Source: Haplodiscus bocki
Lineage: Eukaryota
NCBI GenBank assembly: GCA_965655095.1
Contig: OZ296649.1
Coordinates: 21,700,001-21,764,000 of the forward strand
DNA: 64,000 nt
Reading direction: 5' to 3'
Translations under genes and position numbers: made by a program
Part shown: piece after piece, positions 1-54,711 of the stretch
Layout of the letters: each line of letters begins with the position of its first letter
Position numbering within the stretch: the stretch's first letter is position 1
The notes under the pieces: generated by a model
Databases searched by the model: none
The model's input: only the letters and a program-made list of their open reading frames with translations
What the model was told of the DNA's origin: nothing

Positions 1-885
1 GAAAATTACAGAACTACACACTGTTCTCTGATTTAAACAATCCCCATGGCTTGAAAATGTTTTTAACAAAACGCAGATAAAAGATTTTGAGCAAAAAGCA
101 AATTCGAAAAAATCTTTCCACAAAATAATGATTAATGCTTTCTATGCAAAACTCATAGAAGATTTAAGAAAACGTATGAGCCCTGATTTCATAGATAAAA
201 CGGATAAAGAAAAACTAATTGAGACACAATCAGAAACAACAGTTCAAGATAAAATTGGAGAATATGAAAAGATTAATTTTATTTCTTTTAATTTGGAAAA
301 CACTATTTTTACGACACTTATTTTTGTAGGATTTTGTATGTTAGAATTATCGGATTTTGTATTGTGTTTGTGGTGATTTTGTAAAATACTTCCTTATTTT
401 GGCGAAGATATTGTATAGTTACTTTATATCAATACGGATTCAATTGTATTTTCTTTTGCTCCAATTAAGAATTTATTGGATGATTTGAAACATTTTAGTA
501 AAGATTTAGACTTTAGTGAGATAGATTCACCACATGAACTAATTTCGGGAAAAAAAAGTAAAACGAAGAATGAAACCTGAATCATCTCCAGAAGATGAAA
601 TAGATGAAGTAGTGTTTTTATTGAGTAAGTATTGTAATAAAAAACCAACGAACTTAACTGAATCGAAACACAAAGGAGTACAATCACATATTACCTACAC
701 CTTAGAAGAAGCGAAGTTTTATTTAGAAAATAAATGAAACCAAATGTGGTGTTAATAAAACTTTTAGAAGTGAAAAACATGAATTTTTAATGGTAAAACG
801 ACCAAAGTTAGCTTCAAATACTTTCGATAATAAAAGATGCTATATCAATAAATTTGCAAGTATACCATGGAGTCATTGTGTATAT
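1..885 (+). pseudogene. pPolB C-terminal part, lineage 1 (runs off the window edge)
   Basis: FKQSPWL (~32-52); motif B-like HKIMINAFYAK..EDLRKR (~119-175); IFVGFCMLELS; motif C-like LYINTDS (~422-442); terminal FDNKRCY..SIPWSH. Confidence 0.9.
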
Positions 886-907
886 GATGATAATAATATT
901 ATTTCAA

Positions 908-1580
908 ATGGTTGAAAAAATTACTAGTCTTTTTATAAACAAGATTTATGCCAAAATTCTAAAAAAAACAACTTATGCTACCAAAGAAACTGATGTATTT
1001 TACGTAGATGATACTTGAAGCACGGATTTATTAGAACCAAACGATTAAGGAACAACAAATACTAAAGGTCAAATATAAAACTCTGTAATTATCGATAATT
1101 TTTGTAAAATTGGATGTACTATTCCATTGGGAAAAATGCTCAAACAAAAAAAAATCCGATTGAAAACATTCTCAATTTTTCCAAGAGAAAACCAAATTTA
1201 ATTGAGACTAATGATGGAAAACAAGCTGTAAAATTTTTATATCATCTCCCAAAACAACTGTTACAAAAGTAATCGCTACTCATCAAAACGAGCAGTATTC
1301 GATGAAAGTTGTAACAGAACAATTAAAAATCTCCATAAAAACTTGTATTTGGAAAAGGTACAGGAAAATGGATCGATGTAATAAATACAGTAACAAAACA
1401 AAACAAATATACAAAATATCTTCATTTAATTTGACACCAATTCAAGTATCTTTTAAGAAGAATGAGGGATTTTTTTACATACATTCATTGAAGAAAAGTG
1501 AGACAATAAAACCAAAGTCTAAGCTAGGAGTTTTGGTTAGAACTGCAAACAGGAAGAAAGTTTTCATAAAAGGTGATGAT
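908..1580 (+). pseudogene. Polinton-type rve integrase, N-terminal and core part, truncated at ...KVFIKGD
   Basis: Degenerate YVDDT*STDLL, VIIDNFCKIG.TIPL, KRKPNLIETNDGK, LTPIQVS, KPKSKLGVLVRTANRKKVFIKGD. Confidence 0.88.
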
Positions 1581-2104
1581 TAGTGTTTATATATCGAATA
1601 TATTTATTCCCTTTTTTTGTAACCCCACATAGGGTTTTGTAGATTTCATGATTTTGAGAAGATGAGTTCGGTAATGAAAATCATACGTTTTTGCAATGTT
1701 GATTACCAGCAAAAATTTCAGTTATCAATTTCTGGGTGTATTGTTAGGCACCAGATTCCTTATGAAAAAGCGTAATTTTAACCAAAGAAGAAAAGTATCT
1801 TCAACCAGAAAAAAAATAACTATCAAAAAACTAACATACTTATCCAGTCACATCAAATGCATGAGCAATTACCAAATCATAAATGTAAATTTTTTTAGGG
1901 TTAGTATTTTGCTACTCCATAATGAATGTGGTGTTTAACTGTACAAGCAAAAACTGATCACTGAAAACAATATTCATAATTAAAATTGCAACAAAAAACA
2001 TGATTTTCATTTCCAAATTCATCGTCCAAAAATCAATAAATTTAGAGAATCGTAGGTGGTGATATGAAAAGTGGGGAATTTTTGTAATTGATAAATGCAC
2101 ACTG
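1581..2104. repeat. ~525 bp imperfect palindrome ('M', copy A): ~200 bp inverted arms around a ~120 bp core
   Basis: 1661 GATGAGTTCGGTAATGAAAATCA pairs with the reverse complement of 2001-2023 (GATGAATTTGGAAATGAAAATCA); termini TAGTGT...ACACTG; homologous to 46632-47163 and 41904-42238. Confidence 0.8.
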
Positions 2105-2204
2105 CTTTTTACAAAGTTTAATTGTAAACATAACAGTAACCAGTTCTTTATTTTCAAAAATTTAATATAAATTACAAAAGTTGGCTACCTCTTCTACAGT
2201 GAGT

Positions 2205-2960
2205 TATGCTAATGATTTTTTTAAACTTTATAAGGGCAAATAAACCAAGTGTATGAACTGTGATACCGTCAATAAATCCCTTAGCAGATCTGGATGTTAT
2301 GAACACATTAGATCAAATATCCTCTTACTAAAAACAAGAGGCTTAACAAGATGTGATATATGCAACAATGTTTAAACTGAAAATGGTCGACTGGTTTGTA
2401 AAAATTATGCAAATATTGTTGCACTGATATAAAGATATTTGAACGGGAAAACCGTATTACATCCGAAAACGGTCATGAAAACAAAAAAAAATTACTTCAA
2501 GAACAACCTCTCGATAATAAACGGAAGCTTTAACATTATTTTCTGATGTTTGCGATTTGACTTCGGAGGAAAAATATGGCGACGGCATTTAGAATCAAAT
2601 AAACATCTTCTTAAAACAGGTAACTTTATCAAAACTAAATGTGATACTTGTAGGTTTGATTCACCACAAAATTATCTCAAAAGGAATTTAAATGCAAACA
2701 GATACAAATACAATCTTCGTGAAAAAGAACATTATCTTCAAAAATATTAACCCCAACAAGCAAACAACTGTTCAGAAACAAAATGTGGAAGGTGCAATAA
2801 ATTTTTAAGAAGTGAAATAAGAGAAACCCTTAATCAATAAAAGAAACGCGGAGAAAAAAGTTCATCAAAGTATTTTTTAAGTGAAACTTGCAATATATTT
2901 GTTGAAGAATCAAATACTAAACACAAAAAACTTTAGCACACATAAGAAAATATAATGCAG
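2205..2960 (+). pseudogene. Array of C2H2-like (CxxC...HxxSxxH) zinc fingers upstream of, or fused to, pPolB
   Basis: CMNC..EHIRS, RCDIC, DVC..WRRHLESNKH, KCDTC, KCGRC, ETCN..KH. Confidence 0.7.
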
Positions 2961-5900
2961 AATAAACAACAAAACCAAATTCCAAAAGTGAAGAACCAAA
3001 TGAAAACGGGAAAGCAATTAAAATTGAAAACATAAAAAGAGCGGCTAGCACTGATTGTTCATTTGCTTACCACGAGAAACAGCACAACTTTTCAATCGAA
3101 TTTAAATCTTTAGCACCAGATTATGCTATTACATTTATCAAGATTTCCCAAAATGCAACATTTAACATGAATGATTTGAACAGAATACTTATAGAAACAA
3201 GTAGAACCTATGCAACAGTAAGTCACAAATAATATTTTAAATGCCCTGTATCCTTTTATGCTTTCTTTGAATAAAAAGGATATGATGTTAGACGTGATTA
3301 GTTTATTATTATTGCAACTGATTTTTACCTAAATACACCACAGGAAAGATTTGTATTCACCAATTGAAATTATTAAAAATAACATCCAACCAGAGTTACA
3401 ATCTATAATTGAAAATTTTGAGTAAAAGTAGTTCCGGATTTAGATTTGAAAGTCTTACTTTTGTGGTCAGAACGTATTCACAAACTGGAAAAAATTGGTG
3501 GAAGCAGTTACATTGATCTTCCTCATTACCGTAGATCAATTATTAACCCTCAAAATCATTATGATAGTAATTGTGCAATATGGTCAATCTTAAGCAAAGT
3601 TTCTTCAGAGGAACAATTGTATTTATACCTAGAAGATATGTAAAACATTTATTTTAATACAAGAAAAATACAGATTTCAGTGATGGATTTTAAATTAAAG
3701 ATATTCGCAAATTAGGAAGTTCGAAGAATTTCTGCAATAAAATCTTTGAACTTGATAATGCTAAAAATTTTTACGAAGGTGCTTTTAACCCAACATACAA
3801 CTCGATAAAAAAGAAACTATAAATCCTTTTGATTCATTGCTATACAAATAGCAATACTGTTTCAAAAAACAAACGCATGCTTTTGTCGGTTCACCAAACA
3901 GGACAAATTTATGTAGAAAATGTTTGTCATCCTATTCCACAGGAAGCTAAGTCTACACCAGGGATTCTGCTGAAACATGAACCATGTAAAATGAATCTTC
4001 CAGATGATAAATATTTTAAAATTACTATGTTTCGTTACAAACTAGTAGCATTACATTCTACAGAGTATGCAGACTTCGAATGCAATAATATTGCTATAAA
4101 CAAAACAAAATCGAACACCATATTCTTTACTGAGCAAAAACCTGTCACTTACGTTTTAGGCAAATTTTCCAAATTAGAAGAATCTCTTAAAATCTATATA
4201 TATTACAGACTTTGGTGGTGTATGTGTAAAATAATTTGTGAAATATATAACAAAATTACATAAAAACTTACTTCAGAAATATAGTCATACTAACTTCTTT
4301 TCGAAAATGACTGAAACAAAGTAAGGATTTTGATAAAGCTGATAAATGCTGGATATGTGAAAGGAACTTTGAAAAGATGAAGAAGCATTTTGTAAAAAAT
4401 ATAAAACATTTAATAATCCTAATGAAACAGTGAGCAATAACAAAAAACTGTCAAATGTAGAGGAGCATCATATCTTGTATGCAAATTGAAAATAAGATCA
4501 CCGTATTCACATTTTATGCCTATGGTTTTACATATTATTTCTAGGTATGATTCTGTTTTTTAATGACAACTAATTCCACAAAAACTTTTCAGAAAAAAAA
4601 ACGAACTTTAAGGTAATACCGAGAACAAGAGGAGAATATTTCACAGTTTTTCATGGTCATGTAATGTTCAAAAATTCCTAAAGTTTCAGGAATTTTCATT
4701 TAGGAAATTTAGTAAAAACATTGAAAGTTTCAGATATATATTTTTAAAAAACGTGTTTGGTGATCGGTGTGAAATTGTAAGAAGGAAAATGGGATACCAT
4801 ATGAAGCATATAAATCTATAGAAGTTTGCAGCAAAACTTTATCAGATCTCAAAGTAAAGATTATTCTTCATCATTGAAAGAAAACACCGGATCCATCTGA
4901 TACAAGCGAAAGATGTAAAAAATATTAGCTTAAAGCTGAAAAAGAATTTTTTATCTTTCTTAAAATATGTGATTTGTTAATATTAGCAGATGTTTTTACT
5001 GGATTTGTAATAGAATCATCTGAAACCTAAAAATGAAAACCATTATGTTTTGTGTCATCACCACGCTATACATATCAATCTGCATTAAAAATTACAATTC
5101 TCCAAAATGAATTTTCACAATCTGAAGATTTATTTCTACGTGTTTAAAATGCTTTACGAGAAGGTTCTTGCGGTGTTTGTGGACCTCGTTTTGTTGAAGG
5201 CAGTGAGAAAATTGTAATATTATGCGTAAAGGAAAAAAAATACATGGATGATGTATGTCCCAATGATTAGTTTCTATTGAAAAGAAATTTACAAAAATTT
5301 TTACAACAGAAGATGTTACAATAACACCAGAAGACTCCGATGTTGGATAGGCTGTAGATGTTAATCCAAAATCCCACGACAACATAAAAAAACAACATGC
5401 TTTCCACTTTGTTCGGAAAATTAGAAAGTGGATACAACATACTTCACAGACGTTTGTGAACAGCATTAAAGCAGCAGACTAAAAACCACGAAGAAAATTA
5501 GATTGCAAATGGACTGATAAATAAATGATTAATTTACCCAATAAAAACACCTAAAATTTTATGTTAACCACGGCACAGAAATTGTGAAAACAAACAAAAT
5601 TATGGTTTTAAAAGAAAAAGCAATTTTGAAATGATAATTGGATAAAAATACAAATTTTAGAACAAACGGCAAAAGCTGTGAATTTAGAGAAAAAATTCCG
5701 GTAGGTATGACCTGCAGCCTGTTTTTGTAAAAAAAAAAGGAGAATCCAGGAAAAAGAAAACAAACAAAAATTGTAACAAATTTTAAAAACTGTAAAAAAA
5801 GAGCAAAGTAATTTAACCTACAATGATAATACACAATATCCTTTTGAAGATGGTACTTCGCTTTGGAGCTGTACATTTCAGAAACAAAAGATTCTCCTGA

Positions 5901-6130
5901 ATAGGCCAATGGTAGTTCAATTTACTGTTTTATAACTGGCAAAAATATTTATTTATGAAAACTTTTATGATAAACCATAAGTATAATTGAGTGAAGAGTT
6001 TTTGCAATTCCAATACACTGATGCAGAATCAATTGCATAAGGTTTTGAGACGAGCGGCAAAGCCAGAAATTGAAAAACAAATTCACGAAACGTTTGATAT
6101 GTTTGATAACAGCAACCTAGAGACACAATT
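2960..6130 (+). pseudogene. pPolB lineage 2, copy 1 (N-terminus to just past motif C)
   Basis: GGSSYIDLP..IINPQNHYDSNCAIWSIL (~3497-3595), exonuclease YADFEC (~4066), KCWICE, CDLLILADVF, YGxCMSQ region, CxWTDK, QYTDAES (~6011). Confidence 0.9.
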
Positions 6131-6895
6131 TATTTACGAAATGAAAGAGAACTAGAGGATTCGAAACAAATAACAAAAAACAATGACAATTATATTGAAG
6201 ATGATAAAATTGAAAGTGATCTACTAAACCCTCTTTTTACACGTATTGTGAAAGAAAAAGGGACTTTTGTAAAAGAAAATTTATCTTAAATTGAATTTAT
6301 AAAGAGGTGCAAAAACTATTAGGAAAATAGCAAACGTCAGTAGTGTCAGATATAGTGTCGAACAATCAAATGAGGTAAAACGAGGTAAACCATCTTTTTA
6401 TATTCTGTTTTCCTTTTTTTCACCGCATAATGTAAAATCTGTTCTCAATTTCACACTTTTATTCAACAGAACACTTAAAAACATGCACAAATTCATGCCT
6501 TTTAGCAATTAATTGAAATAATGACACAAAAAACCCGGAAGAACGAGGAAAAAAAGACAAGGCTGGTTTTTTACATGTTTTGGTTGTTCAATACTATTTC
6601 TGACACTATTTGTAGACAAAAATTTGAACAAAAGACGTAGAAATCTGAATTTGTGTGTCCAAATCCGGTAAAATATTGATCACCGATGTTCGGGAGAAGA
6701 GAATATTTCAACAATAAATGCACAATTATTGTCAATTGCGATTAAAAATCAAATGTTTGTTCATCTTTTCTTTCATTTTAGAAATTAAAAAAGGTGTTTT
6801 TTTTTTAAAAAAAAAGGACTACCGTCAGAGTGCATGAGGATCTGTCCGCGTCACCAATAGTCGTAAGAAAACCTTAACAGTGTTCAGCTTCCTAA

Positions 6896-7070
6896 ATGTG
6901 AAAACAAGTCCTAATTGACAAATTCATCAAAACAATTTGTTCTAAACCTGCTAAGAAAAATTATGATACAATCAAAACTGTGGTCAAACACATTGAAAAC
7001 ACTTGGAGATTAGGTTTTTCAGATTTGGTAGAATATGGAACAAAAAATAATAAAGGTTTTAGATATATAA
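6896..7070 (+). pseudogene. Integrase N-terminal fragment
   Basis: DKFIKTICSKPAKKNYDTIKTVVKHIENTW..DLVEYGTKNNKGFRYI; near-identical (inverted) to 38735-38910. Confidence 0.85.
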
Positions 7071-7081
7071 ATTGATAGTAA

Positions 7082-7345
7082 TGTAAATTCATTACATGCA
7101 GCCTCCATTTTTCAAGAATAATTGAAGGTTTACAAACTGAAAGTTTTATTTTATTTTAGCCAGTTTCAATTCTAATGTCTCTTGTCGCTTTGTATGACTA
7201 TTTTTTTTACTTTATGTATTAGTTTTACTATCTCCAAAATTAGTGTTCCATTCTTGTTAGCGGGGATATTTCTAGAACGATCCATTTCAATTTGTAGAAA
7301 GTCACAATTCTTCATATCCATTTTTTCACGATTCACATTCACAAT
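7082..7345 (-). pseudogene. Minor capsid-like gene N-terminal fragment
   Basis: NKNGTLILEI..SHTKRQETLELK..EKWRLHVMNL resembles the starts of the genes at 15150 and 43000. Confidence 0.65.
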
Positions 7346-9320
7346 GGATGTGAAAAATCATTTGTTACATGTATAAGAGAAGTTGATGAAAGCTTACATC
7401 AAATATATAGTCGTACTGAATTTCCTTCAAAAATGACTGAAACAAAATGAAGAAGAATTCGATAAAGCTGACAAATGCTGGATGTGTGAAAAGAGCTTTG
7501 AAGAAAAGAAGAAGCATAATGTAAATATTACAAAAACATTCAATATTCCTGAAAAAAACAGTGAGCAATAATAAAAGTAAGGGATCGCCGAAAAAACATG
7601 AAAAATTCAAGGTGAGAGACCATGACCATTTAGCAGATAAACTCAAAGGAGCAGCATATGTTGTATGCAAATTGAAAATAAGATCACCGTTTTCACATTT
7701 TATGCTTACCGTTTTACATATTTTGTCTGGGTATGATTCTTTTTTTAATGACAACTAATTCGACAAAAATTTTTAAAGAAAACGAAATTTAATGTAATAC
7801 AAAATACAAGAACAGAAGAATTTACAGTTGTTCATGGTCATTTAAAGTTCATAGATTCTTAAAGTTTCAGGAATTTTCATTTAGCAAAATTAGTAAAAAC
7901 ATTAAAAGTTTCAGATTTTTCTTAAAAAAGGAGTGTTTGGTGATCGTTGGGAACTTGTAAAGAAGAAAATTGTATTCCCCTATGAAGCATATATATCTAC
8001 AGAAGTTTGCAGCAAACCTTTGTCAGATCTCAAAGTAGAGATGATTCTTCATCATTAAGAGAAAACAGCGGATCCAACTGATACAAACGAAATAAGTAAA
8101 AATTTTAAGCTTAAAGCTGGAGAAAGTATTTTTATCTTTTAAAAAGTATGTGATGTGCTTATATTAGCAGATGTTTTTACTAGATTTGTAATAGAATCAT
8201 CTGAAAGTTATATATCAAAACCATCAAGTTTTATATCATTACCAGGCTATACATATCAATCTGCATTTAAAATGACATTTTCCCAAAATAATTTTCACAA
8301 TCTGAAGATAAGTTTCTACCTGTTTAAAATGCTTTACGAGAAGGTTTTTGCGGTGTCTGTGGACCTCGTTATGTTAACCGAAGTGGGAAATTTGTAATGT
8401 TATGCATAGAGGAAAAAAATTTTTATGGTTGGTGTACATCGCAGTGTTTACTTCTAATTGAAAGTAAATTTATAAAAATTCTTAAAACAGAAGTTGTTTA
8501 AAAAACACCAGTAGACTCTGATAATGGATAGGCTGTAGACCTTAATCTCAAATCCCACGACAATATAAAAGAAACATGATGTTTTCCTATTTGTCCGAAA
8601 AATTAGAAAGTGGAGACAACATTCTTCACAGACTTCTGTGAACAGCATTAAACCAGCAGACTAAAAACCACAACGAAAATTAGATTGCGATTGGACTGAT
8701 AAATAAATGATTAGTTTACCCAATAAACAAACCTAAAAGTTTATGTTAACCATGGTACGGAAATTGTGAAAACAAACAAAATTATGGGTTTAAAAGGAAA
8801 ACGAAATTTGAAATTATCTATGAATATGAACACAAACTTTAGAGCAAAAGGCAAAAGCAATGAACATAGGGAAACCATTCCGGTAGGTATGACCTGCAGC
8901 CATTTTGATAAATGAGTGGAGAATGCACGAAAGAAAAAGAAAACAAGTGAAACTTGTAACAAAATTTAAAAATTGTAAAAACGAAGCAAAGTAAACTAAT
9001 TTGCAATGAATATACACAGTACCTTTTCAAAGATGGTACTCCAATTTGGAATTAAACATTTCATAAACAAACAAGTCTTTTTTTTAGGCCATTAATAATT
9101 GAATCTACTGTTTTATATTTAGCAAAGTTTTATATATATATGGAAACTTTTATGATAAATTACAGGCATAATTCGGCGAAGATAGCTTGCAATTCCATTA
9201 TGCTGATACAGAATCATTTGTATTAAGTTTTGAGACAAGCAAATTAGTCGGAAGTTTGTAAACTGGACAAAACAAATTGATACGTTTGATTTCAGTAACC
9301 TAAAGAAACACAAATTTTTC
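7345..9320 (+). pseudogene. pPolB lineage 2, copy 2 (endonuclease VII-like insert to motif C)
   Basis: KCWMCE, KVRDHDHLADKLKGAAYVVC, LHILSGYDS, FPYE, DVLILADVF..SLPGYTYQSA, CDWTDK, HYADTES. Confidence 0.9.
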
Positions 9321-9659
9321 ACAAAAAAATGACCTAGCTGATTCGAAACAAATAACAAAAAACTATGAAAATGACATTGGGGATGATAAAATTGGAAGTG
9401 ATCTACTAAACACTTTTCAAAGGTAAAGTGAAAGAACAAAACTTTTGAAACGGATGAAATGTCTAAAAATAAATCTATAAACAGATTCATTTACCTTTAG
9501 GAAAAAAACGTCAGTAGTCTCAGATACAGTGTTGAACAACCAAGGCAGGTAAAATGCCATTACTTATTTTTTACCGCATATTCTCACATATTTTCTGACT
9601 TTCAACCTTTTATTCAACATAACAATCTAAAAAACGCACGAATTCATGCATATCAGCAA

Positions 9660-11205
9660 TTGGTTTATTTATATTTTATGAACCATGTGATGTGCTGTCC
9701 TTAACAGTTCTTTTTTTGTTTTGTTAGAGAACCTTTGGAAACCTATGCTTTAAAGCCATTTCATTCTGTATCATTCCATTCAAGGCTTTACATATCAACG
9801 TGTGTTAAAAAGACAGAAATGAAAATTGAAATTTCACAAGCTAAAGAATTATTCTTACCTGTGAAAAAATTTATTCCAGGGGTTTTTTCAGGTTTTTGTG
9901 GACCTCGTTACTTTAAATGAAGTGGAAGTATTTTAAAAAAATACGTAGATGCATGCAAATATTCATATGGTTGGTGTTTATCGCAAAGTTTACTTTTTAT
10001 GGAAAATAAATTTACAAAGACTGTTACAACAGAAGATACTTCAAAAACACCAAAAGTTTCTGATATTGGATATGCTGTAGACGTTAATCTGAAATCCCAT
10101 CACAATATAAAAACACGAAGGACATATATTCCATTTTTTTCGAGAAATTACAAACTGGATACAACATTCTTAACAGATTTATAACAGCATTAAAACAACA
10201 GACTATGGACAACAAAGAAAATTGCTTTCCGATTGGATTGATAAAACCTAATGTTTTCCACATTTAGAAAAAAAAAATTTTATGTTTCTTGGCACGGAAG
10301 TTATGAAAACAAGTAAATTTATGAGTTTAAAACCAACCATGAAAGCATATTTACATATAAATACAAACTTAGGAGCAAGAAGCAAAGCCATCACATTTTG
10401 AGAAAAAAGTCCCAGAGGTATGACTTGCATCCTACTTTCGAAACTAATGGAGATCCCAAGAAAAAGAAAACATACAAAAATTTTATCAAGGTGTAAAAAA
10501 TTTAAAAACGAGCAAACTAATTTAACTTGCCAGGACTATACACGATATCCTTCAAGAAATGGTACTTCTTTTTGGATTCACACGCTTGATAGAGAAAAAA
10601 TACTATTTTGTAAGCCAATACTAATCGAATTTACTGAATTAGAAAAAGCATAGTTCTTTGTGTATTAAGCATTTTACGATAAACTGCAACCGTATTTCTG
10701 TGAAGATAGATTGCAATTGCATTATACGGACACAGACTCAGTTGTATCAAGTTTTGACACAAGCAACCTGATTACAGATTGAAAAATTCGGGAAACGAAA
10801 TTTGATATGTCTGATTTCAGCAACCGAAAGAAACACCGAGATTTATAAAACACAACAACTGAAAAAGTTTTTGGTAATTTTAAAAAAGAACCACCAAGTA
10901 CAATTGATGTTGAATAATTTTGTGCATTGAAAGCGAAAGATAATTGTTTCAAAACTAAACGTGAAAGTGAACGTATACAACTAAAGGAGGTATCAAAAGA
11001 AGCATTAAAAATTGTTAAATTTGATAGAGACTTGAATTTTTTGAATGATATTTTTTTCAGAAGATGAAAATTCAATTAACGCAACACATAGAAACAAAAA
11101 TAAAAATCATACATTGGAAATACAATCAACAAACGAAAAAAAACTTTGTGAATTTGATGATAAAAAGGAAATATATAAACGCAAAAGAGAGTGAGTCTTG
11201 AGGGA
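9660..11205 (+). pseudogene. pPolB lineage 2, copy 3 (exonuclease III to C-terminus)
   Basis: CDVL, CGPRY, YVDA..YGWCLSQ (motif A), DWIDK, KPILIEFTELEKA, HYTDTDS (~10720-10740), GNFKKE, CEFDDKK. Confidence 0.9.
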
Positions 11206-14925: not shown

Positions 14926-14927
14926 TA

Positions 14928-17314: not shown

Positions 17315-17330
17315 AAAACATATTTTATAA

Positions 17331-42238: not shown

Positions 42239-42239
42239 T

Positions 42240-42410
42240 ACTGAGACAAAACAAATTGGTCTCACAAGTTGTATACAATTACTGAATATTTTGATGATAA
42301 ATTACCAGCCTATCATATGAATGTTTTGCTTGAAAGAAATAACGAAGTTTTGTTGAGAAAAACAGTTTCCTCAATGAAAGAGAAGAAAAAAGCTTGAAAA
42401 ACTACTATTC
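42240..42410 (+). pseudogene. Integrase C-terminal tail (copy at 47165-47335)
   Basis: DKTNWSHKLYTITEYFDDKLPAYHMNVLLERNNEVLLRKT aligns with the tail of the unsplit integrase at ~38070-38235. Confidence 0.8.
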
Positions 42411-42419
42411 AATCATTCC

Positions 42420-42810
42420 CCTAGTGTATACAATTTCAGTAATTCCATTTAAATTCAGTATAAAAAACAAAACTACAAGTAAAAAAAATTGCAGCAAAAA
42501 ATGAACAATCTAGCACTAGAGTCAAAATTATATAAAGGAGACAATAAATTTTCAACAAAATCTGCCATGGCCACGTTACATCTTCTTGAGGGAACTCATG
42601 GGGTCTGTTTTCTTGACAGTTACTATCTTGGTTCCTCTGGATATGCTCCACCTGAAATAAAAGTTATTTAAACTAAAAGTAAACAAGTAAAATGTACCTA
42701 TTCTGAATATCAAATTCAGAAAAAAGTCTTTGTGGTAGTTATTGTTTATATTTTTTTATTGCACAGTTTTGTTTTCAACGGATATTCAAACAGTAGTTTC
42801 AATTTTGTAA
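42420..42810 (+). pseudogene. Adenain-like cysteine protease (internally deleted copy at 47345-47690)
   Basis: LHLLEGTHGVCFLDSYYLGSSGYAPP, KCTYSEYQIQ, SLCGSYCLY (catalytic His, Gln and Cys positions visible). Confidence 0.85.
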
Positions 42811-42999
42811 CAAAACAAACGACTAGATCAAAAATAAAACAAGAGACCAAAATTATACCAACAACAAAAACAGTACCAAAAGAGCAGGAAAACGAAAAAG
42901 CCAAACTGCATTTGTTCGAAAAAGATCATAAATTTGTTGTACAAGAAATGGTGTCGGCTAATGTATTTGACGAATTATGATTTACTATAAAACAATATC

Positions 43000-43815
43000 A
43001 GTCTCTTTAAACTTAGCCCCACTAACAAGGATGAAACACTATTAATCGAGACACTATTAATGAGTAATTTTGTTGCATAAAGTAAAAAAAACCCATACGA
43101 AACCACAACAGGCCTCTGGAATTCAAAATGACTAAATTAAACCAAATTTTGTATTTTTGATCAACCTTCAAATTCTCCTGAGAGATGGATGATGGTTGCA
43201 ATGAATTTACAAAATTATAATACTGTTTGCAACTAAACTGACAAAAAAGATAGTATTTCTCAGTATAAAACTGGTTATTGTGAACAGGAACTTGTTGACT
43301 TTGAGCAGTTGAAAAAATAATTGCACCAAAAACGCCAGAACACACGTTAAAAACTAAAACAAGTTTAGTAATTAAATATGATAATGAATTAAAAGTAAAA
43401 GGTGAACATGGATATGAAAAAATCACTTTTTAACAGTTCCTGACCGTGAATTGCCTCGAAAAAAACCCATAGAAAGATTGAAAGAAGTGAATTACTTACG
43501 GATTTTTTTGGATGAATATCTGGATATGTATTGTAGATTGCAAATAACCAGTGAAGAAAATGAGTAAAATTTGGGGTAAATTTATTTTCGGCCAAAATTA
43601 TTAGTTTATGAAATACCTGTACGAATTTACGTACTAGTTGACATCGAGGACGCCTCTCGAGAAAAAAAAGAACGTTAAGCCGATTAAAAAACAATGAAAA
43701 CATCTTTTTTACAACAAAACAAGAAAAAATTTCAACTTTGATTTGAATGAAATTTTAGGTTTTGCAAGGAGAAAATATCCTGCTTGAACACATTTAGGTG
43801 AAAAACCTACGAAAA
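43000..43815 (+). pseudogene. Minor capsid-like gene, 3'-truncated (copy ~47875-48655)
   Basis: NKDETLL..THTKPQQ.LEFKMTK..WMM..NLQ; YEIP..Y; ILGFARRKYPA*THLGEKP. Confidence 0.6.
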
Positions 43816-43824: not shown

Positions 43825-46550
43825 ACTGAAGGTTTGCCTGCAGCTGCTACGTTTTTAAATGCTTTATAGGTGATTTTTATTTTCTTTTTTTGGAGTTCCC
43901 AACGATCACCCTTTACTTTTTTAGTTATTTCAAAATCAGAATCTTTCAAATGTTTTTACTAATTTTGTTAAAGGCATAATCATCAACCTTAAAGAATCTA
44001 TAAATGTTATATGCCACAAATAATTCTGAAACGTTTTTCTCTAGTTTTTGGTAGTACACTAAGTTTCCATTTCTTTATATCTTTTTCGGAATAGATCTGT
44101 CATTTGAAAAAATGAGAATCATATCTAGACAGGTTTTGTAAAACCATAGGCATAAAATGTGAACACGATGATCTTACTTTCAAAATGCATACAACATATG
44201 TTGCTCCTCTGAATTAACCTGTTAAAAGGTCATGATCTCTCATTTTGAAAACTTCGTATTTTCTCAGCAATCCCTTAATTTTATAATTGCTCACAGTTTT
44301 ATCAGGAACATTGAATGTTCTATAGTATATACAAAATGGTTCTTCATTTTCTCAAAGTTCCTTTCACACATACAACCTTTATCAGTTTTATCAAAATCTT
44401 CATTTTTTTCAGTCATTTTTGAATGAAATTTAGTACGACTATATATTTGATGTAAGGTTGTACCTAATGCTGTTGTATGTTTCACAAGTGATTTTACACA
44501 GCCACCACCAGAGTTTGCAATACGTTAAAAGTTCAAAAAGTAATCTAATTTTGAAAAAAATGCGCGGCCGTAGGTGATTGCTTTCTGCTCATAAAGGTGT
44601 TTGGTTTTCGTTTTTGTATTGTTTAATGGAAAAAAATTGCATTCAAAATCTGAATTTGCTGTAGAATGTAATGGTATCCTGTAACGAAAGCTAAACAAAT
44701 GTTAAGATCCCTCATCTGGAAATATCTTTTCACATGGTTCACGTTTCAGGCAGTTTTCTTAATTTAGATATTTTTTGTTTTCAGTTGGAGAGGATGATGA
44801 ACAAATACTTCAAAACTAAGTTCTGTTTGATGAGTGGGCCGACAAATAAATGCAATTTTTTATGTTAACCTGTAATGGTTTTTGTAAAGGTGTAGGTCAA
44901 AACATTTAAATTTTTTTCCTGAGATGTACAGAGGGTAAAAGCAACGTCTCAAAAACTTCTAGGATTATCAAACTCAAATTCTTTAATGCACAAGTCATTT
45001 ACCTTTTCTAATCTAGGAATTTCTTTAATTTGAAATCCGTTGGTGGAAACTATATTTCCTCAATTTATTATATTAAAATGTTTTAAAATACTATTAGGTA
45101 TGGATACATTTGTTTTCACTAGGATTACTTTGATTGAGATGGACCATTTTGCACAGCAAATATAATTATGATTTTGAAGGCTAATATTTGAACTATGGTT
45201 TTGAGAAAGGTCAATCTAACTGCTTCCACCCATTTTGTCAGTTTGTGAAAACCTTATGTCCATAACAAAGAGACTTTGAAATCTAAAACCAAAATCAATC
45301 AGTTCAAAACCTTCAATTTCAGATTGTATTTCTGGTTAGAAATTATTTTCATTTTTTTGATTTTGTGATCATGTTTTTTCTGTGGTATATTTTGATACAA
45401 ATCAGTCTCATTAGGTGTAAAATCAACATTCCCAGTCTCATGCTGTTTTTTTTGTCAAAGAAAGCATGAAAAGATACATGGTTCATGAAGTTTGATTTGT
45501 TAATCTTTCTTGCATAGGTTGTACTTGTTTCTTTCAGTATTGTGTTCATAACATTTATGTTAAATGTTTCATTTGGCGGAATCCCAAAAATTGCAGTAGC
45601 ATGTTCTGGTGTTAACGACTGAAATTGGTTAATATAACTTTGTGCTATTTCTCGTGGTGAAGCAAAAAGACAATTAGGGCTAGCCACTTCTATGTTTTGT
45701 AATTTAATTAAATTTTCGTTTCCAAAAGTTTTTTAAGTTTTGGTCTCTGGTTTTGGTGTTTGTTCTTGTTGATATTTTTTTGTGCTTGCTAAGGTTTCAT
45801 TGTGTTGGGTATGTGATTGTGTAACATATCTACTGCAAGTTTCACAAAAATAAAGTTTTGATGAAATATTCTAACCTCGTGTTTTGTTATTTTTTCTGAT
45901 CGATTATAGGTTCTCCAATTTTCACGATTGAAGTTTTCAAAGCAAAATGCACAATTTCATTCTGAACAGTCGTGTGCTTCTTTGGGTTTTTTTTATAAAG
46001 ATTGCATATTGTTTTTTCTCCGAGTTTTCATTTAGGTTTGATTGATTTAATATTTCCTTTAGAAAATTTTTGTGGTTTTTCAATATTAGAAGTATTAAAT
46101 TCAGGTTTGAAAATGTCTTAGGAAGATGTTTATTTGATTTTTCAAGGCGTTGCCAACTTTTTTTGTTAATAATCAAATTGCAAACATCACCAGATACCAA
46201 TAAACTTTCCATTTATTAGAGATTTTGTTTTTGAAATAAATTTGGTTGACATTTTTTTGCTGGTTTCGTTTTCATTAGTAAGATGGTTTCCCCTGTCAAC
46301 TAAGTTAATATTTGTACAACAATATTCGCCTTCTCTTACGAATATGTCGACTTTTTTCATTATAAACATTTTTGCATTAATCACATCTTGTTAAGTCGCC
46401 TGTTTTTAAAAAAATTGATGTACTGATCTAATGTGTTTATTTCATCCAGTTTCGCTAAAGGATAGATTGCAGGTACCACTATTTAAACAAGTGGTTTTTC
46501 TGTTCTCATAAAACTTAATGAAGTAGTTGGCACATCTCACAGTGGAAAAG
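43825..46550 (-). pseudogene. Zinc-finger array plus N-terminal half of pPolB lineage 2 (diverged inverted homolog of ~2170-4840)
   Basis: DVCNLIINKKSWQRLEKSNKH, ASPNCLFA..FQSLTPEHA, GGS*IDL, ANSDFEC, CMCERNF, RDHDLLTG*FRGATYVVC, NLSRYDSHFF, FIDSL, GDRWEL. Confidence 0.88.
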
Positions 46551-46631
46551 GTGGGTAATTTTCATCATATATGAAACTTTGGCAAAAAAATGGATACAGT
46601 TGTGGTTATAAATAAATTTTGTGGTGAAGAA

Positions 46632-47163
46632 GATTGTGTATTAATCGATTAGTTGTATTCCCCAATCTTTGCATCACAAAATAGAGTCTCGTAATTTTCA
46701 TGATATTTAGAAAATGAACGTCGTTCTGAAAATCATACTTTTTTGCAATGTTGATCATCAGCAACAATTTTTTTATCAGTTTTTGGTTGTATAGTTAAAC
46801 ATCTTATTCTTCATGAAAAAGCGTAATTTTGACCAAAGAAAAAATATCTTCAACCCCAAAAAAATGAAAAACCATCAGAATATTAACAAATAGATCCATT
46901 CACTTCAGGTACATATACATATGCAACTACAACAACAAAAGCATAGCTTTTTTTATAGTTAAAAATATGCTTTTTTCATAACGAGTCTGTTGCCTAACAA
47001 CACCACCCAAAATTGAAAACTAAAAACATTGTTGGTTTTTGACGTTGCAGATTTGTCTGATTTTCATTACCAAATTCATCTGTTTCTTTAACTCATGGAA
47101 TTTAAAAGACACCAGGTGGTGATGAAAAAAGGTAAACAATACCTAAAATCGATATACACAATA
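46632..47163. repeat. Palindrome M, copy B
   Basis: Arms ATTGTGTATTAATCGATT...AATCGATATACACAATA; GAAAATCA/TGATTTTC pairing; same core as 1780-1890. Confidence 0.8.
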
Positions 47164-49007
47164 TACTGAGATACAACAATTTGGTCTCACAAGTTGTATA
47201 CAACTACTGAATACTTTGATGATAAATTACCAGCCTATCATATGAATGTTTTGCTTGAAAGAAGTAACGAAGTTTTGTTGAGAAAAACAGTTTTTCCAGT
47301 GGAAGAAAAAAAGAAGGTTTGAGAAACTGTCTTTACAAAATTCTTTTAGTGTACACAATTTCAGTAATTCTATAAAACTTCAGTATAAAAAACAAAGCTA
47401 CGAAAAAATATATACTGGAGACAAAAAACTTTCAATAAATTCTGCCATAGCCACGTTACATCTTTCCGAAGGAACTCTTTGGGTCTGTTTTCTTGACAGT
47501 TTTTATCTTGGTTCCCCCGGATAAGCTCCACCTAAAAATAATATTATTTACACTAAAAGTAAACAAGGAAAACGTACTTATTCTGAATATCAAATTCAGA
47601 AAAAAGTCTTTGTGGTAGTTCTTGTTTATATTTTTTTATTGCATATTTTTGTTTTCAACGGATATTCAAACAGTAGTTTCAATTTTGTAACAAAACAAAC
47701 GACTAGATCAAAAATAAAACAAGAGACCAAAATTATACCGACAACAACAACAGTACCCAAAAAGCAGGAAAACGAAAGAACGAAAACTGCATTTTTTTGA
47801 AAAACATCTTAAACTTGTCGTACAAAAATGGCCTCGGCTAATGGGTTTAACGATTTACGACTTTCTTTAATACAAAGTCGATCTTTTCAAAATTGGCCCC
47901 ACTAACAAGAATGAAACACTATTAATCGAGACAGTATTTTTGTTGCAAAAAGTATAAAAACACCCATACAAAACCACAAGAGGCCTTAGAATTCAAAATG
48001 ACTCAATTAACCCAAATTCTATAAATTTGATAAACCTTCGAATTTTCCTGAGATGGATGATGGGTGTAACCAATTTACAAAATTTTAATATTGTTTGCAA
48101 AAAAAACTGACAGAACTAATAAAAGTGGTCGGTATATACCTGGTTATTACGAACCGGACCCCGTAGAATTCGAGATTTTCCAAAGATTTTTAGACCAAGA
48201 AACGCCAGAATACGCTTTAAAAGCAAAACTGGTTTAGCAAGAAGGTAGGGAAATGAAATTTAAAAAAGGCGAACATGGAATTGAATACTTTACTTTTTTT
48301 TACCAGATCTTGATTATGAATTACCTCAAAAAATCCTCTAGAAGGGTTGAAAGCGATGAAATACGGACGACATTTTCTTGACGAAGATTTTGATATGTAT
48401 TGTAGAATGCAATTAACGAGTAAAGGAAGTGTGTTTTTATGATGGTAACTTTATGTTGAACCAAAGACAATGAATATTGAAATACCTTCAAAAATTTATG
48501 GATTAAATGACAGTAAATACGCTTCTCAACAAATTATTCAACTTAAAGCCGATGAAAAACAATGAAAAAACTTTTCAACTCTGATTTCATTAACGTTTCA
48601 GGTTTTGCAAAGAAAACATATCCTGTTGGAACAAATCTAAATGAAAAATTTACAACATCTTTATTAGAAGCCAATTTAGTATAAGACATCGTAGCGGTGG
48701 GAAATTTGAGAAAAATGCCCAAAGTCCCTGTAAAGGTAAAATAAAACAAGACAAGAACTTTTTTCGGTAAATATGGTATTGAGGGAATAAATTATAAACT
48801 GGATAATCTATCTCAGGGTGTTTTTTTGTCTAATATAAAGTTCAGAAAAGGCCAGTTCAATGCCAACATTGACATATAATTTTTATGCGAAGACTTCGTT
48901 CTTGATAAAAATTTTGGTGATGAAAATTCAGTTTGACTTCAGATGATAATAAAAATATGAATGTTGAAAAAAAAACAAAATTGTTCACTAATTTATGCTA
49001 GTGGATT

Positions 49008-49180
49008 TGACATTGTTTTTCTTTCCTCTGATTACAATGACTTAGTGGATAGGTTAAGCCTACTTTATCAGGAGGAAAAGATGCAAGTGATGCGAAAAGT
49101 ATAAATGCTTGAACTACATCAATAGTTGCTAAACTTCTTGATTTTGATTGCTTAACAAAAGAAAAAGATGGTATTATGAC
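49008..49180 (+). pseudogene. Fragment of conserved accessory gene
   Basis: DIVFLSSDYNDLVDRLSLLYQE..IVAKLLDFDCLT, homologous to 28755-28920. Confidence 0.55.
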
Positions 49181-49194: not shown

Positions 49195-49850
49195 GTTGAG
49201 GTTTTTGAAAAAGGATCAGCTACAGGTTTAAGAACTTCAATTTTTGCTTTCAATAAAGTGCACTATTTGTCTTCAGCATCTAATCCATCAAATTATGATA
49301 ACTATACCTCTCTTTCCACGCTTCTTTGCGAAAATTTTCAAATTCCTCATAACTCATATCAAAACCAGGCGTGTCATTGAATAAACTTTGTGCTGTCTTT
49401 TCAGTTTTTTTTAAAAAAAATTGATAATGTTGCTATTATCTCTAATTAGTAATGGTTACAGAGAATTTTGGTATGATAAATAATACACATCAATTTTCAC
49501 ATTCCTACTACACGGGGAAAAAGGGGAAATGTCTCTTTGTTTAATTTTCAACATACCACTAAAGACTACAACGCAATCTTTATATTCATCATTTGTATAT
49601 ACTTGTCCCTTACTATCATAATCAAGATATTGTTTAGGAGATCTAGTTATAGTTTTCTTTTTTCAATGTGGGTTAATTATTTCGCTTCATAGGTTTTAAT
49701 TCATCAGAAGATTCGTTTTTCCAAGGAAACAAGGACCTACAATCAAAGTTCGAGTAGTGCCATTAGTATTTTTGCTCTATGACCTACGTTTATTTTGGCT
49801 TTCTTTGTGTCTTCGTTTTTTATGATCATTTGTGCCATTTTTATTAATGT
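49195..49850 (-). pseudogene. A32/FtsK-like packaging ATPase, second lineage
   Basis: Intact Walker A RTLIVGPCFLGKT (49714-49752), ITRSPKQY, DCVVVF, DVYYLS, IRDNSNII, TPGFDMSYEEF. Confidence 0.88.
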
Positions 49851-50044: not shown

Positions 50045-51279
50045 TCTTAAAACAAACATTTTCCTTCCACCAGAAATTATGCTAACCAATCTAGTAGGTA
50101 ATACTAACGCAAATGCTATATAATTTGTAACATCAACAGCACCCTAAAAATTGTAAAGTTTCTATTTCACACTAATTGGTTGAGCTTCAATATGACCTTT
50201 CTGGTGAGTATATCAAACACATATGAATTATAAGTTTAAATAAATGAATTTATGTCTTTAAACGGTTTTAATATTCCATCTTTATTGTGCCTGAGAGAAA
50301 AATTCTCTTTTCCGTTTTAAGCTTCGTGCAAAAATGTTATATGGATAATATAGGTTTATATAAATATCAGGATATCGAACAGACACAATTCTACAAACAG
50401 CATATGATACTAGTAACCAGTCAAACGCAAAGTTATCAGGAATTTGTGCCTCGTTTTCATTAATACGCCTGAATCCTACTAAAACCCAAGATGGCCCACT
50501 TGTAACGTTCGATTCCTATTTTAAAAGTCCAACTACGCGTAATATTCTTTGGTTTTCTCAAAACACTACGTTCCTCAAAATACAATTCTGTTGGAATTTC
50601 AATTAACGTTTCATTTGCGATTAAATGTTGATTATCGGGACTTGATGTAAATTTGTCAACGTATCACGGAGTCTCTCATGTAGGAACTTCTGCTCGTGCG
50701 CCTGTGCTTGCTCCAACATTTACACTGTTTGACTAATTACGTTTAAATGAGGATTATAAACTAGACCATATGTAATTTTATTTTGATCAGCACAACCAAA
50801 AATATGAACTAATTGTTTTCTTTAATGAAAAGAACCATTTAATTATCATTGTCTATTAACTTTAACCAATTTCTTGTTCTTGCTTGATCACTGTCAAAAC
50901 AGTAAAACATTTCAATTGTCCCAGCTGATGACGATAAAAGTTTATACAATAATTAGGCTGTATGAAGACTTTCGACTTTCTCTAGATGTTTTTAAAACTT
51001 GTAGTAATTGTTGTTTTGCTAAAGGGAGCAAAAAGACCAAGATTCACTGACCTAGTAGCATCACCCTTGTAGTATTGAGCAACATCAGCACAATGTTAAA
51101 CCTCAATTCAAACAAGGACAACCGTTTTGCAATGAAATGTAACTACATTCACGCGGTATTCGAACTTCTAAATTTTTGTTAACTTGGTCCACTCCTTCTT
51201 TACTTTCAGGAGATTTTCTTTAAAAATCTGATTTGTAAAAATCTCTTGATTTTGGTTCACCGGTTTTAAAATTGAACAT
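50045..51279 (-). pseudogene. Major capsid protein, second divergent lineage
   Basis: MFNF..VRIPRECSYISL, VNLGLFAPFS..TTSF..HLE, ITYGL.Y, WTFKIG, VCRI.SVRYPD, AQPISV, FALVL.TRLVS; collinear with 28947-30250. Confidence 0.75.
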
Positions 51280-51329
51280 TGTTTTCATATGCATCAAAAT
51301 TATTATCACTGAAAAAATTAAGAAACCAG

Positions 51330-51842
51330 AGAATTATTTTTTTTGTTTTTTTTCTTTGGATTATGCGTTCCAATACGTTTCTTATACTCTGCTTGATGTC
51401 TTTTATTATCTTTTTCAACCGTTTTGATATATTTTTCTAAAATCATGAACTGAGGTTTTTGCAATGGTGTTTTTTTCTAAATAATAATTTTCTCTCTTCT
51501 TTGAAATTTTGCTTGCTAATTTGGTGGTAATTGCAAAACCACACAAAAACCTGCTGTTATTGATACTACAAATAAGCCAAATCGAGTTATACTAAGTGCT
51601 ATTGACGTGCGTGCTAGTCCAATAAGTGTAGGTGAACCAATTGTGTTGAAAACTTTTTCATATTTTTCAATTTGTTACATTTCTCTCTGAGTTCTTCAAG
51701 TTCTTCTTCGTAAAATCTTGAAATCACATCGATTTTGCTTTTAGAAAAATTGAAGCTCTTAACTTCCTTTGGTTTTTTACTAATTATTTCTGCCCAATTT
51801 TGAGACTCAGTAATGAGACTTGGGTTTTTTTGTCGACCATAT
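51330..51842 (-). pseudogene. Putative membrane protein, homolog of 17775-18275
   Basis: EVKSFN..FYEEE..KYEKVFNTIGSPTLIGLARTSIALSITRFGLFVVSITAGFCV. Confidence 0.55.
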
Positions 51843-54711
51843 CTAATTTTTACCTGATTTTATTCTGTTAATTGATCCTTGGACAATGTATTTTCTACGT
51901 ATTTTATAATCCAATTCTGACTCTCATTTATATAAATATACGAGGCGTACGCATATAAATTATTCTTTTTTAAAGATTTTATCTTTTGGTGCGCAGAAAA
52001 AATTCGTTGTGGTTGACCGTTTGGTCTCTTATTTTACTCAAGAATATTGAATTGGCAAACCAACAAAAGTTTGTTTTTTGATCGGTGTAAAACCGGTGTT
52101 TTGTGAAATTAATAGAACCTGGGAGAAAAACCGGGATTCATTTAGGTTGATAGTGGTTTTGGTAATAATAAAAAGAGTAGGAAACTGTCCCAGGAATTTG
52201 GGCACTTTCTTTAAACGGAATTGGGCCACTTGTAATGCTTGTCTGAGAAAATAATTTTTGCCTCTTCGCGCTCTGTGGTGCCTGTGTCAGTATCCTGACG
52301 AAAGCTTCCATACTATGACGGTATCAGCTAGGGGTGTAATGAAAACGGCTGAAAACGACCTCTTTGATTTCTTTGACAGTTACTTTTTTCGCATATTGAA
52401 GGTGCTAATTCTGCACAGACTGGTCTGACAAAAAATGAACAACAGCGCTCTAGGAAATCATGTTTGACATAATACTCAATTCATGTCAACTGTGGAGAAG
52501 GTTTTTGGGTCTCTCTGACTTTGCATAATGTTTGTGTAGTTCTTGGAGATTGATGAGTAAAATTAAAAGGCTGAATATTGAACAAATAATGCTAGACTTG
52601 GAAAATAGAACCTTTTTTTCGCTAACATTTGTTCGCACAGGAAGCGCAGGACCTTCTGTTTCCTGGATTTCTCTCCGCTTGACCTATAAATTGGCCAGAA
52701 AGGTCAGTATAACCACTGCGGTGCGTTAACCTACATCTGGATGAAAATTAGCTTTGTTTTTGTTTTTATGCATTTCCATACTTTGTGTAAGTGGGTGCTT
52801 TTCAGTTTGACGATTAGGTTTTGAGAAACCATCAATATCCGCTGTAGTTGAGGATGGAATGCTGTCGGTCTTAAAGTATGCTGAATTGAGAATTCTGATG
52901 CTCCTTTACAACTTCATTACAAAGTTTTGCGACACTGACAAATACCGAGATCTGGAGATGAATACACTCTCTAACCTTACAGAATAACAATTGTATAGGT
53001 ACAATGTGATAATCAAGTTCTGGTGAAGTTGAGAGAATTTTCCACCAGTACTTATTCATTTTGACTACATATGTAGTGCCCCTCTTGAGCATTGGGCATT
53101 AAAATGGCGTAATCTTGAAACATAGTTGCACCAAAAGTTTGAGATGGAAACAGTGTGACAGGTATATATTTCAGTTCGAATTTCTCGAACAAACCCTTGA
53201 CTTGCAACTGAGGCACTTTTTCTAAAAGTGTCAATGTTATTTCACGGTGTCAATGTTAAAGTTTGTCTCAAAATTTAATAAGTATTGTTTGTTTTTGATC
53301 TCAACTGACAAGTTAGATCGTTTTGTGTGAAGGTCAAATTCGACTCTGCAAGACGGCTTTATGAAAATACTTAATGTTCATGTTTTAAAAGATTTTTGGT
53401 TTTTGAGAAAAGGTTGGGAGTTATCACTTTGGAACAAACTTGGTATATGCTTTTCGGAATCTTTGAATTTTGCGCAGGAAATTTTTGGCATTTAATGTAT
53501 CAAAAAACTTATGAAACATGCAAGCAGGTATTACAAAAAGGCATTAGAAAAAGACTTGATAATCGCATTTTTGAAGAATTTCGGCTCCCGCAAAGTGTGG
53601 AGGTAGCAAAAAATTTCAAGTTTTGGCGTTTTCAAAAAAGTTGTTTTCGGGAAAAGCATCTGAAAAGTTTTTGAGTTTGCGTTTTCGAATTTTTCTGGTC
53701 AGTGCAAAGGGGGTGTAAAATGATGTTTTACAAAATTTGAACCTCCCAGGAAAGCGGGGAAGGTTTTTGAGAAAATTTGCAAAAAGCCGATCGATTCGGA
53801 CGGAGCTGTTGCGTTTTCCGAGAAAAAGTCTCGATAATATTCGGGCGCTTTTCACTCGAAACGCACTTTAAAAAGTACCAAAGAAAGCTATCAGATGCAG
53901 AATTACGGAACTACTTGATATTTTGAAATTCGGGTCTCTGAGAGTTAATGGATTTTAACGAAGAATGGGTGTTTGTATCACGAAAAACTGGTCATTCGTG
54001 GTTTTAAAAAACTGGGTGGTATTTAGGAAGGGTCGCTCGGAAGTTTTTGGGACTTATGTTTTGTCAAATATTCGAAGTTCAAAAAGGGGAATCTTCAATT
54101 TTTGTCTCATAGTGCTGAAAAACATCGTTGGTATGATTCATTGGTGTTTTGCAAACTTTGCTTTTCCTCAAGCCTGCAGCGCTTCGAGAAAATATCCCGA
54201 ATGGTGATGAACAGTGAGTTGATTCGAAGGGAGCAACAAATTTTCAGCAAAAGCGTCAATTAACAACAACTGCGGGTGTAGAAGAACGAGTTATTTCTGT
54301 GAAACAAAAAAGAACTCTTCTAGGAAAACTAAAAATAATGAACAGCTCTTACAACACAGATGTGGGCAAATAGCTCACAGTCATTTTCAAGAAATATCTT
54401 ATCTCCTTAAATAAGATATAAGGTAGAAAGTAGCAGATGCAGGCGATTCTACTGCAAGACTGGCTGAGGATAGGAAAATGTTTACATGGAAACTTTATCT
54501 GAAGAATCCGGTGTTCAATTTCAACAATCTTTTTCGCGACATCTAGTGGCTTTTGCTCCGCTTGTCTTTTCTGAATACAATAATCGCTGCACAGATGTTT
54601 CTTTCTGACCAATTCCATTGCTACTGTGAGATTTTTTTCAAAGATGCAGCCTGTTGATCGAAAAATTCAATTCTTGGATTAAAATTTCTAGATCACATAC
54701 AACCAAACAAT

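Follow-up and report, generated by a model that had tools for sequence, protein, structure and literature searches.

The window analysed here is the whole 64,000-nt stretch G000:C2:21,700,001-21,764,000 of the 1.5-Gb genome of Haplodiscus bocki, most of which is a decayed nest of Mavericks (Polintons). At least three lineages of the element's DNA polymerase, PolB, lie in this nest and were duplicated after they had been broken. In the unbroken members of the family, PolB and the outer 100-150 bases of the element travel together over a shared capsid and integrase backbone, likely because each PolB reads its own end as a replication origin; we regard this combined reading as highly probable. 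In itself the window is nothing out of the ordinary, being decayed Mavericks of a known class; the interest lies outside it, in the genome-wide load of Mavericks and in the polymerase-linked ends.

An earlier, sequence-only reading of this DNA had suggested searching the host genome for intact copies with terminal inverted repeats (TIRs) and target-site duplications (TSDs), and many were found, with near-identical TIRs and 6-bp TSDs. A first look across the genome returned 8,891 candidates for the major capsid protein (MCP), 11,762 for the ATPase and 17,977 for PolB, many of the MCP candidates lying in open frames of 416 amino acids (aa) and many of the ATPase candidates in open 250-aa frames (the MCP and ATPase queries were two short window fragments, with 150 candidates scored for each). 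Relatives bounded by TIRs measure 14-20 kb, inside the Polinton range of 13-25 kb (PMC10748475). Type A elements of 17.8 and 19.8 kb, with TIRs and the TSDs AATGAG and GAGGCT, carry an rve integrase, a double jelly-roll (DJR) MCP, an A32 ATPase, a PF03175 PolB, two pentons and a protease-like gene. A type B element (19.2 kb) carries a single penton; its MCP shares 26-30% identity with the type A protein, and its PolB, 1,272 aa long, begins with a zinc-finger-like stretch and contains an EndoVII domain. Relatives match the expected Pfam families: the integrase PF00665 (3.2e-10), the ATPase PF04665 (Pox_A32; 1.8e-8), and PolB PF03175, both in type A (1.7e-18) and in L098, a relative of the first window lineage P1 (5.8e-22). 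The jelly-roll capsids that had been predicted are borne out, as both living MCP types match the DJR family PF21738 above cut-off, and a model of penton 2 (predicted local distance difference test, pLDDT, 84.4; 90 sequences) matches the mavirus penton (6g41; E 2.3e-8, template-modelling score about 0.3) as well as the Sputnik and adenovirus pentons. Penton 1 is probably also a penton, by homology to penton 2. The adenain call fared less well: remnant genes are present, and His, Asp and Cys motifs in the unbroken relatives, which we take to be spaced as in adenain, give the protease label, for which no Pfam protease or PDB match was found in these relatives.

Forty type A elements were taken in list order from the 150 best matches to the MCP fragment, each with an open 415-416-aa MCP frame. 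Their PolBs comprise 24 without EndoVII (four subtypes) and 15 of EndoVII type (13 on the same strand, 2 reversed), one element having none; the PolB frame is open over at least 900 aa in 13 of the 40. PolB class is spread at random over the capsid and integrase trees. Elements with the same and with different PolB classes are equally alike in MCP (0.904/0.904) and integrase (0.852/0.851; 39 elements), and the class changes 13 times on the MCP tree and 11 times on the integrase tree, against 12.2 and 12.1 in shuffles. The ATPase of type A elements comes in two versions that are 47% alike and face opposite ways (L026:6478-7206, minus strand, and L018:8167-8910, plus strand), so the ATPase gene has been exchanged too.

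The termini follow PolB. The right terminus was resolved in 38 of the 39 PolB-bearing elements and matched the PolB class in 38/38: AATAA in 23 of the 24 without EndoVII (one not found), AGTAGTGT in 13/13 and AGTATATG in 2/2, with the first 14-30 bases specific to the PolB subtype. The left end was examined in 20 of the 39 elements; 18 of them have TIRs with the same motif at both ends and a 6-bp TSD, two being unresolved; TIRs with a 6-bp TSD also bound C4, C6, C4b, C10a, C10b and C11r. Seventeen of the 18 TSDs are exact and one has a single mismatch (five were read by eye from the flanks), and in 17 of the 18 resolved cases the TIRs within one element are 89-99.6% alike. The outer 100-150 nt never match across the EndoVII divide, whereas TIR interiors are patchily common to both classes; L106 ends in AATAAT on both sides. 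The pair L135 and L136 amounts to a natural experiment: near-identical capsid and integrase (MCP 98.3%, integrase 95.4%), unrelated polymerases, different ends.

The polymerase, and not the integrase, therefore likely reads the ends. In Polintons, terminal-protein and vOTU domains are described at the N-terminus of pPolB (PMC11161782); since the polymerase thus carries its terminal protein, origin recognition should move with the gene. When co-resident elements recombine, a new PolB would arrive with the nearby right end; the displaced strand would then fold into a panhandle, in which the right end serves as template for the far left one. A mismatched pair of PolB and end would fail to replicate, while the integrase would tolerate either end. 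Adenoviruses repair their ends through such a panhandle intermediate. More broadly, we somewhat favour a Maverick pool of thousands of copies, recently mobile and recombining, in which PolB and a terminal origin of 100-150 bp form a swappable replication cassette, each subtype reading its own end, both ends being rewritten after a swap and the integrase accepting either, with the window preserving extinct branches.

Plain linkage could give a similar pattern: the right end would be carried along beside PolB in each recombination, and TIR copying would match the left end to it, with no sequence specificity involved. The proximity of PolB to the right end in type A elements (1-2.5 kb) and the likeness of the two TIRs suit this idea, as do nematode Polintons, whose TIRs are reported to be highly conserved across a PolB swap (PMC10748475). 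However, the TIR interior, which lies between PolB and the terminus, is mixed between classes (the best interior match of L120, at 87%, is to the other class); crossovers therefore do fall there, yet none of the 38 resolved termini is mismatched. The first bases also differ even between PolB subtypes. We thus consider linkage unlikely as the whole explanation, and favour ends read by the polymerase.

Several points weigh against this reading and the picture built on it. The 40-element sample is non-random, drawn with one window fragment, and related copies in it are not independent events. For three right ends the search used a pattern derived from the motifs of known ends, which could miss an end type not yet seen; L107 gave no resolved end, and in the decayed C12r the end next to a PolB without EndoVII is an odd one. 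The nematode report points the other way as well. The MCP model is poor (pLDDT 55.7), its matches being mostly DJR capsids. When 11 window fragments were compared with Pfam, with stops read as X, none matched, so all window gene labels are second-hand, from unbroken relatives. It is uncertain where E2, the largest remnant in the window, begins and ends, as the flanks outside it are themselves inverted homologues and a clean TSD is lacking (4/6). Finally, the genome share given next rests on 40 fixed-position 10-kb stretches.

With the wider query set, Mavericks make up 36,670 of 400,000 sampled bases (9.2%, bootstrap 3.3-16.3%); three reference elements alone match 31,851 bases in the same forty stretches, a reversed control gave 0, and 9/40 stretches hold at least 500 matching bases. 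The integrase-only match L056 proved to be a long terminal repeat (LTR) retrotransposon and not a Maverick, and integrase queries were left out of the protein part of the wider estimate. For comparison, a RepeatMasker table row gives Mavericks 4.5% of the acoel Praesagittifera naikaiensis (PMC6451197), against about 9%, with its wide interval, here, and their share in the weevil Sitophilus oryzae is 0.3% (PMC8576890). Acoel worm annotations appear to contain proteins like these, which is offered as a lead. A Maverick share near 9% exceeds vertebrate copy numbers by a wide margin and would make the host prime material for Maverick population genetics.

Vertebrate Polintons/Mavericks (Polintoviricetes, PMC8097293) share with this family pPolB, rve integrase, ATPase, MCP, minor capsid and protease-like genes, TIRs, a 6-bp TSD, AGT-AGT ends (in one class here) and the degraded state of most copies. 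They differ in number, with at most 287 copies against thousands of candidate loci here, and in the present elements type A has two pentons, the other class ends in AAT-AAT and the gene order is different. Nematode Polintons (PMC10748475) likewise place distant polymerases, pPolB1 and pPolB2, on one capsid and integrase backbone, and their HNH-type insert can, by description, be set beside the EndoVII found here; unlike the TIRs there, which are described as highly conserved, termini here change with PolB, and at least six PolB subtypes are in circulation. Alpha and Beta adintoviruses (PMC8502044) are also animal-associated, with an integrase and two PolB classes between which capsid modules are exchanged. 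Their split by PF03175 does not sort the present PolBs cleanly: the EndoVII subtypes themselves divide, one missing PF03175 and another matching it at 5.8e-22. Replication and capsid modules reassort in Polisuviricotina as well, with the proposal that the same ends serve both pPolB and integrase (preprint 10.64898/2026.10.13.758929); there, at a deep scale, integrase class follows replicase class, whereas here the integrase follows the capsid and the ends follow PolB.

Published work thus already covers the swapping of PolBs, their nuclease inserts and the exchange of capsid modules (PMC10748475, PMC8502044, preprint 10.64898/2026.10.13.758929). The literature searched, which left most subscription papers, Repbase and supplements outside, yielded no description of termini that track PolB or of this Maverick family. 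Polinton replication has so far been inferred almost wholly from gene content, and the 2026 preprint (10.64898/2026.10.13.758929) raises the question of which protein determines the end sequence. The short natural end sequences and the PolB subtypes named here lend themselves to a direct priming assay.

The sequence-only reading suggested that a zinc-finger-led PolB, paired minor capsid genes and several shared accessory genes may define an undescribed clade; on this view the family could be a polintovirus clade distinct enough for its own rank, marked by paired pentons and accessory genes. No relatives were found in IMG/VR (an MCP alignment scan, in which 0/341 pattern matches were confirmed), no named sequence occurs among the 120 MCP and 120 PolB relatives listed, and full-length BFVD matches reach at most 17% identity for the penton and 15% for the MCP. 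This low identity is uninformative, because the MCP model is poor and BFVD holds few animal Polintons; the top fold matches of the penton are two Tetraselmis virus S1 proteins, and fold matches of the MCP include Adintovirus sp. and MELD virus (at most 15%). Against a separate rank, the core genes, size (14-20 kb), TIRs, 6-bp TSD and AGTAGT ends are all standard. The nearest Atlas clusters to PolB bear EndoVII, one of them named C2H2-type, and are mostly arthropod; since EndoVII PolBs are this widespread, the zinc-finger-led PolB is not a clade marker. Type B, with one penton and its distant MCP, shows that paired pentons do not mark all Mavericks of the genome. Both proposed markers turn out to be the ordinary build of a very large Maverick family; the clade is unproven, and we think it quite doubtful.

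Within the window, the low-GC Maverick block runs from about -3000, some 3 kb upstream of the first base, to 52000, with a GC content of ~29% up to 52 kb and 36-43% past it. The longest stop-free frame is 167 aa, agreeing with the earlier statement that no open reading frame (ORF) exceeds ~165 aa. Broken PolB, integrase, ATPase, MCP and minor capsid genes were each recovered at or near their predicted places by tblastn with unbroken relatives from the same genome as queries. Matches cover 26,034 of 51,900 bases, with best E-values of 5e-71 for MCP (28947-30244), 3.6e-63 for PolB, 7.5e-35 for ATPase, 2.6e-31 for penton and 1.6e-28 for integrase. The PolB placed at 1-885 is present, its true start lying upstream of the window at about -2650 and not within it.

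The remnants are old. Of 5,197 aligned codons 110 are in-frame stops, a number that simulated decay reaches at roughly 0.12-0.15 substitutions per site; since alignments tend to skirt stops, this figure is on the low side. Compared with living genes, the identity at codon positions 1/2/3 is 0.56/0.63/0.47, so the remnants diverged under selection before death and represent older subfamilies, not decayed copies of the sampled living ones; duplicates compared dead against dead are ~0.99 identical at all three positions. TIRs of the living types A and B were not found within the window, and strict E-values returned the window itself as the only close relative of the PolB copy Pd and of MCP2 in the genome (1/150 scored each).

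As proposed, PolB forms three sequence-distinct groups, with aa identity of 16-22% between groups (9 pairs with >200 codons); all three lineages are of EndoVII type and are 27-46% identical to unbroken PolBs. P1 and its integrase are colinear with L098 and L116, whose PolB opens with zinc-finger-like repeats; no left end was found for the P1 element. Group 2 copies are 59-80% identical where at least 80 codons overlap and differ about equally at the three codon positions, apparently having diverged evenly, like neutral duplicates. The two MCP/ATPase sets also stand (MCP1 against MCP2, 24%; ATPases, 32%), and both window MCPs are nearer living type A (39% and 31%) than type B (16%).

E2 has P3 as its PolB and terminal motifs at 12536 and 39464, spanning 26.9 kb including its triplications. 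It reads protease, two pentons, zinc protein, hydrophobic protein, ATPase, 283-aa gene and MCP, with PolB and integrase on the opposite strand, an order repeated in the decayed element C2r (G000:C2:5568054-5583579) at 63-74% nt identity. Its terminal arms are 71-72% alike.

Taken as a whole, the block consists of three or more old Maverick insertions nested together, which broke and were then duplicated locally. The first ATPase/penton set was correctly spotted, but not its number: three tandem units of 4 kb hold a copy each. Across them, 21 of 36 stop columns are common to all three, 8 to two and 7 are private, and amplification therefore came after gene death. A 3.2-kb permuted copy (5510-8713 against 38735-41901, with 100% identical inverted arms) fits a DNA circle from 38.7-41.9 kb integrated by one crossover into a homologous PolB copy; 38735-41901 is the inferred donor because integrase and C2r homology continue across 38735. 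Such arms, 1,342 and 1,091 nt long at 100% identity and 32 kb apart, might raise the suspicion that these repeats are assembly artefacts. We find this very improbable, since contigs of four runs (two samples of one study, one of which may be the source of the assembly) show the arms at ~2x flanking depth and the junctions at single depth, the 11-nt joint occurs in 3/4 runs, and the 4-kb units differ by 4-7%. Among the sequencing runs listed as sharing the window sequence none was of RNA, which says nothing about expression, and five from coral metagenomes shared small amounts of it.

The Polinton core set, the several lineages and the jelly-roll capsids of the sequence-only reading thus stand; its single virus gives way to separate dead insertions with duplications that post-date death (neutral repeats, common stops). 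The remnants would have entered as separate integrase-made insertions of older subfamilies. That the 52 kb were one large multi-polymerase virus genome is extremely improbable: low GC is uniform and viral genes are dense over 55 kb, and two-replicase genomes have been described (preprint 10.64898/2026.10.13.758929), but genes recur truncated and in both orientations, most repeats are neutral duplicates, 9/9 length-measured TIR-bounded relatives are 14-20 kb with one PolB each, and two DNA searches (40 scored candidates each) found no copy above 74% outside the window.

Features of the Maverick block, in window positions (nt, nucleotide identity)
Feature	Position	Strand	Remarks
PolB lineage P1, 3' part, broken	1..885	+	gene start near -2650; colinear with living L098/L116, 65-68% nt, 46% aa
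rve integrase remnant after P1	908..1577	+	E 1.6e-28; unbroken relative matches PF00665
PolB group 2 copy Pa, 5' part, broken	1890..5509	+	protein matches from 3476; 69% nt to 43854-46843
Recent circularly permuted copy of 38735-41901	5510..8713	+	arms ~100% identical; 22-nt crossover block at 5510 and 8692; holds PolB 3' part, terminal unit, integrase start, 11-nt joint, penton scrap, PolB middle
Remainder of PolB copy Pa and terminal-type motif at 9513	8714..9661	+	
PolB group 2 copy Pc, 3' half, broken	9627..11205	+	matches 9627-11028, E 7e-40; 70% nt to the remaining copies of group 2
Left terminal unit (AGTAGT type) of E2	12536..12810	+	72% to right unit; boundary uncertain, outer flanks alike too
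Protease-like remnant of E2	14571..14654	+	E 1e-7; 65% nt to C2r over 14334-14625
~4-kb unit, three copies and a part copy	14864..27680	+	penton 1, penton 2, zinc-ribbon protein, transmembrane protein, ATPase; units 4-7% apart
Penton 1 (minor capsid), first unit	15149..16175	+	paralog of penton 2, 46% aa in living elements
Penton 2 (minor capsid), first unit	16223..17305	+	fold of unbroken relative resembles the pentons of mavirus, Sputnik and adenovirus
Small zinc-ribbon protein, first unit	17362..17724	+	E 1e-33; relative has weak DUF5679 match below cut-off
Small protein with hydrophobic stretch, first unit	17759..18275	+	no informative Pfam family
Packaging ATPase set 1, first unit	18270..18826	+	E 2e-33; relative matches Pox_A32 at 1.8e-8
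Remnant of conserved 283-aa gene, between ATPase and MCP	27705..28943	+	
MCP1, broken	28947..30244	+	E 5e-71; 39-49% to unbroken relatives; relative matches PF21738
PolB lineage P3, EndoVII type, polymerase of E2	30340..34600	-	zinc-finger-like motifs near start; 70% nt to C2r PolB
Three old ~0.9 kb units: integrase end and small zinc-finger gene	35538..38220	-	67-69% nt; integrase match 37213-37350
Integrase of E2	38143..38882	-	E 1e-27; continues in frame across 38735
Right terminal unit (AGTAGT type) of E2	39187..39464	-	
PolB group 2 piece U	39772..41419	-	within likely donor segment 38735-41901
Integrase end, protease-like gene (42489-42719), penton start	41904..43805	+	duplicate of 46829-48648, 15% apart
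PolB group 2 copy Pd, 5' half	43854..46843	-	
Integrase end, protease-like gene (47408-47644), penton start, end of 283-aa gene	46829..49166	+	
Packaging ATPase set 2	49298..49752	-	E 2e-8; 32% to set 1
MCP2, heavily broken	50048..51279	-	E 2e-15; 31% to type A, 16% to type B, 24% to MCP1
Remnant of small hydrophobic protein	51525..51653	-	last Maverick match before GC rise

In the window (6339-6610, 12536-12804 and 39193-39464) and in C2r alike, the outer 270 bp of the old-type end are bounded by inverted copies of the terminal motif, in the manner of a miniature element. Among the unbroken relatives, the counterpart of window 17759-18275 (L018:7385-7915, plus strand) encodes a hydrophobic protein with LYPSAP near its start, reminiscent of a PSAP late-domain budding motif and a possible hint of envelopment. 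Beside the protease, type B encodes a repetitive 443-aa protein, possibly a fibre, for which no Pfam match was found (L035:214-1542, plus strand), where type A has a 144-aa gene. Three MCP matches, at G000:C9:17063079, 17091382 and 17119683, belong to a 28.3-kb tandem unit that combines a type A Maverick with a neighbouring retroelement-like run of ORFs.

Past the Maverick block, the window holds two short 15-bp tandem arrays (54722-54839 and 54949-55007), a decayed LTR retrotransposon on the plus strand at 56054-61077 (gag, protease, reverse transcriptase/RNase H and integrase, labelled by way of L055/L056), and a further repeat without a label at 61921-64031.

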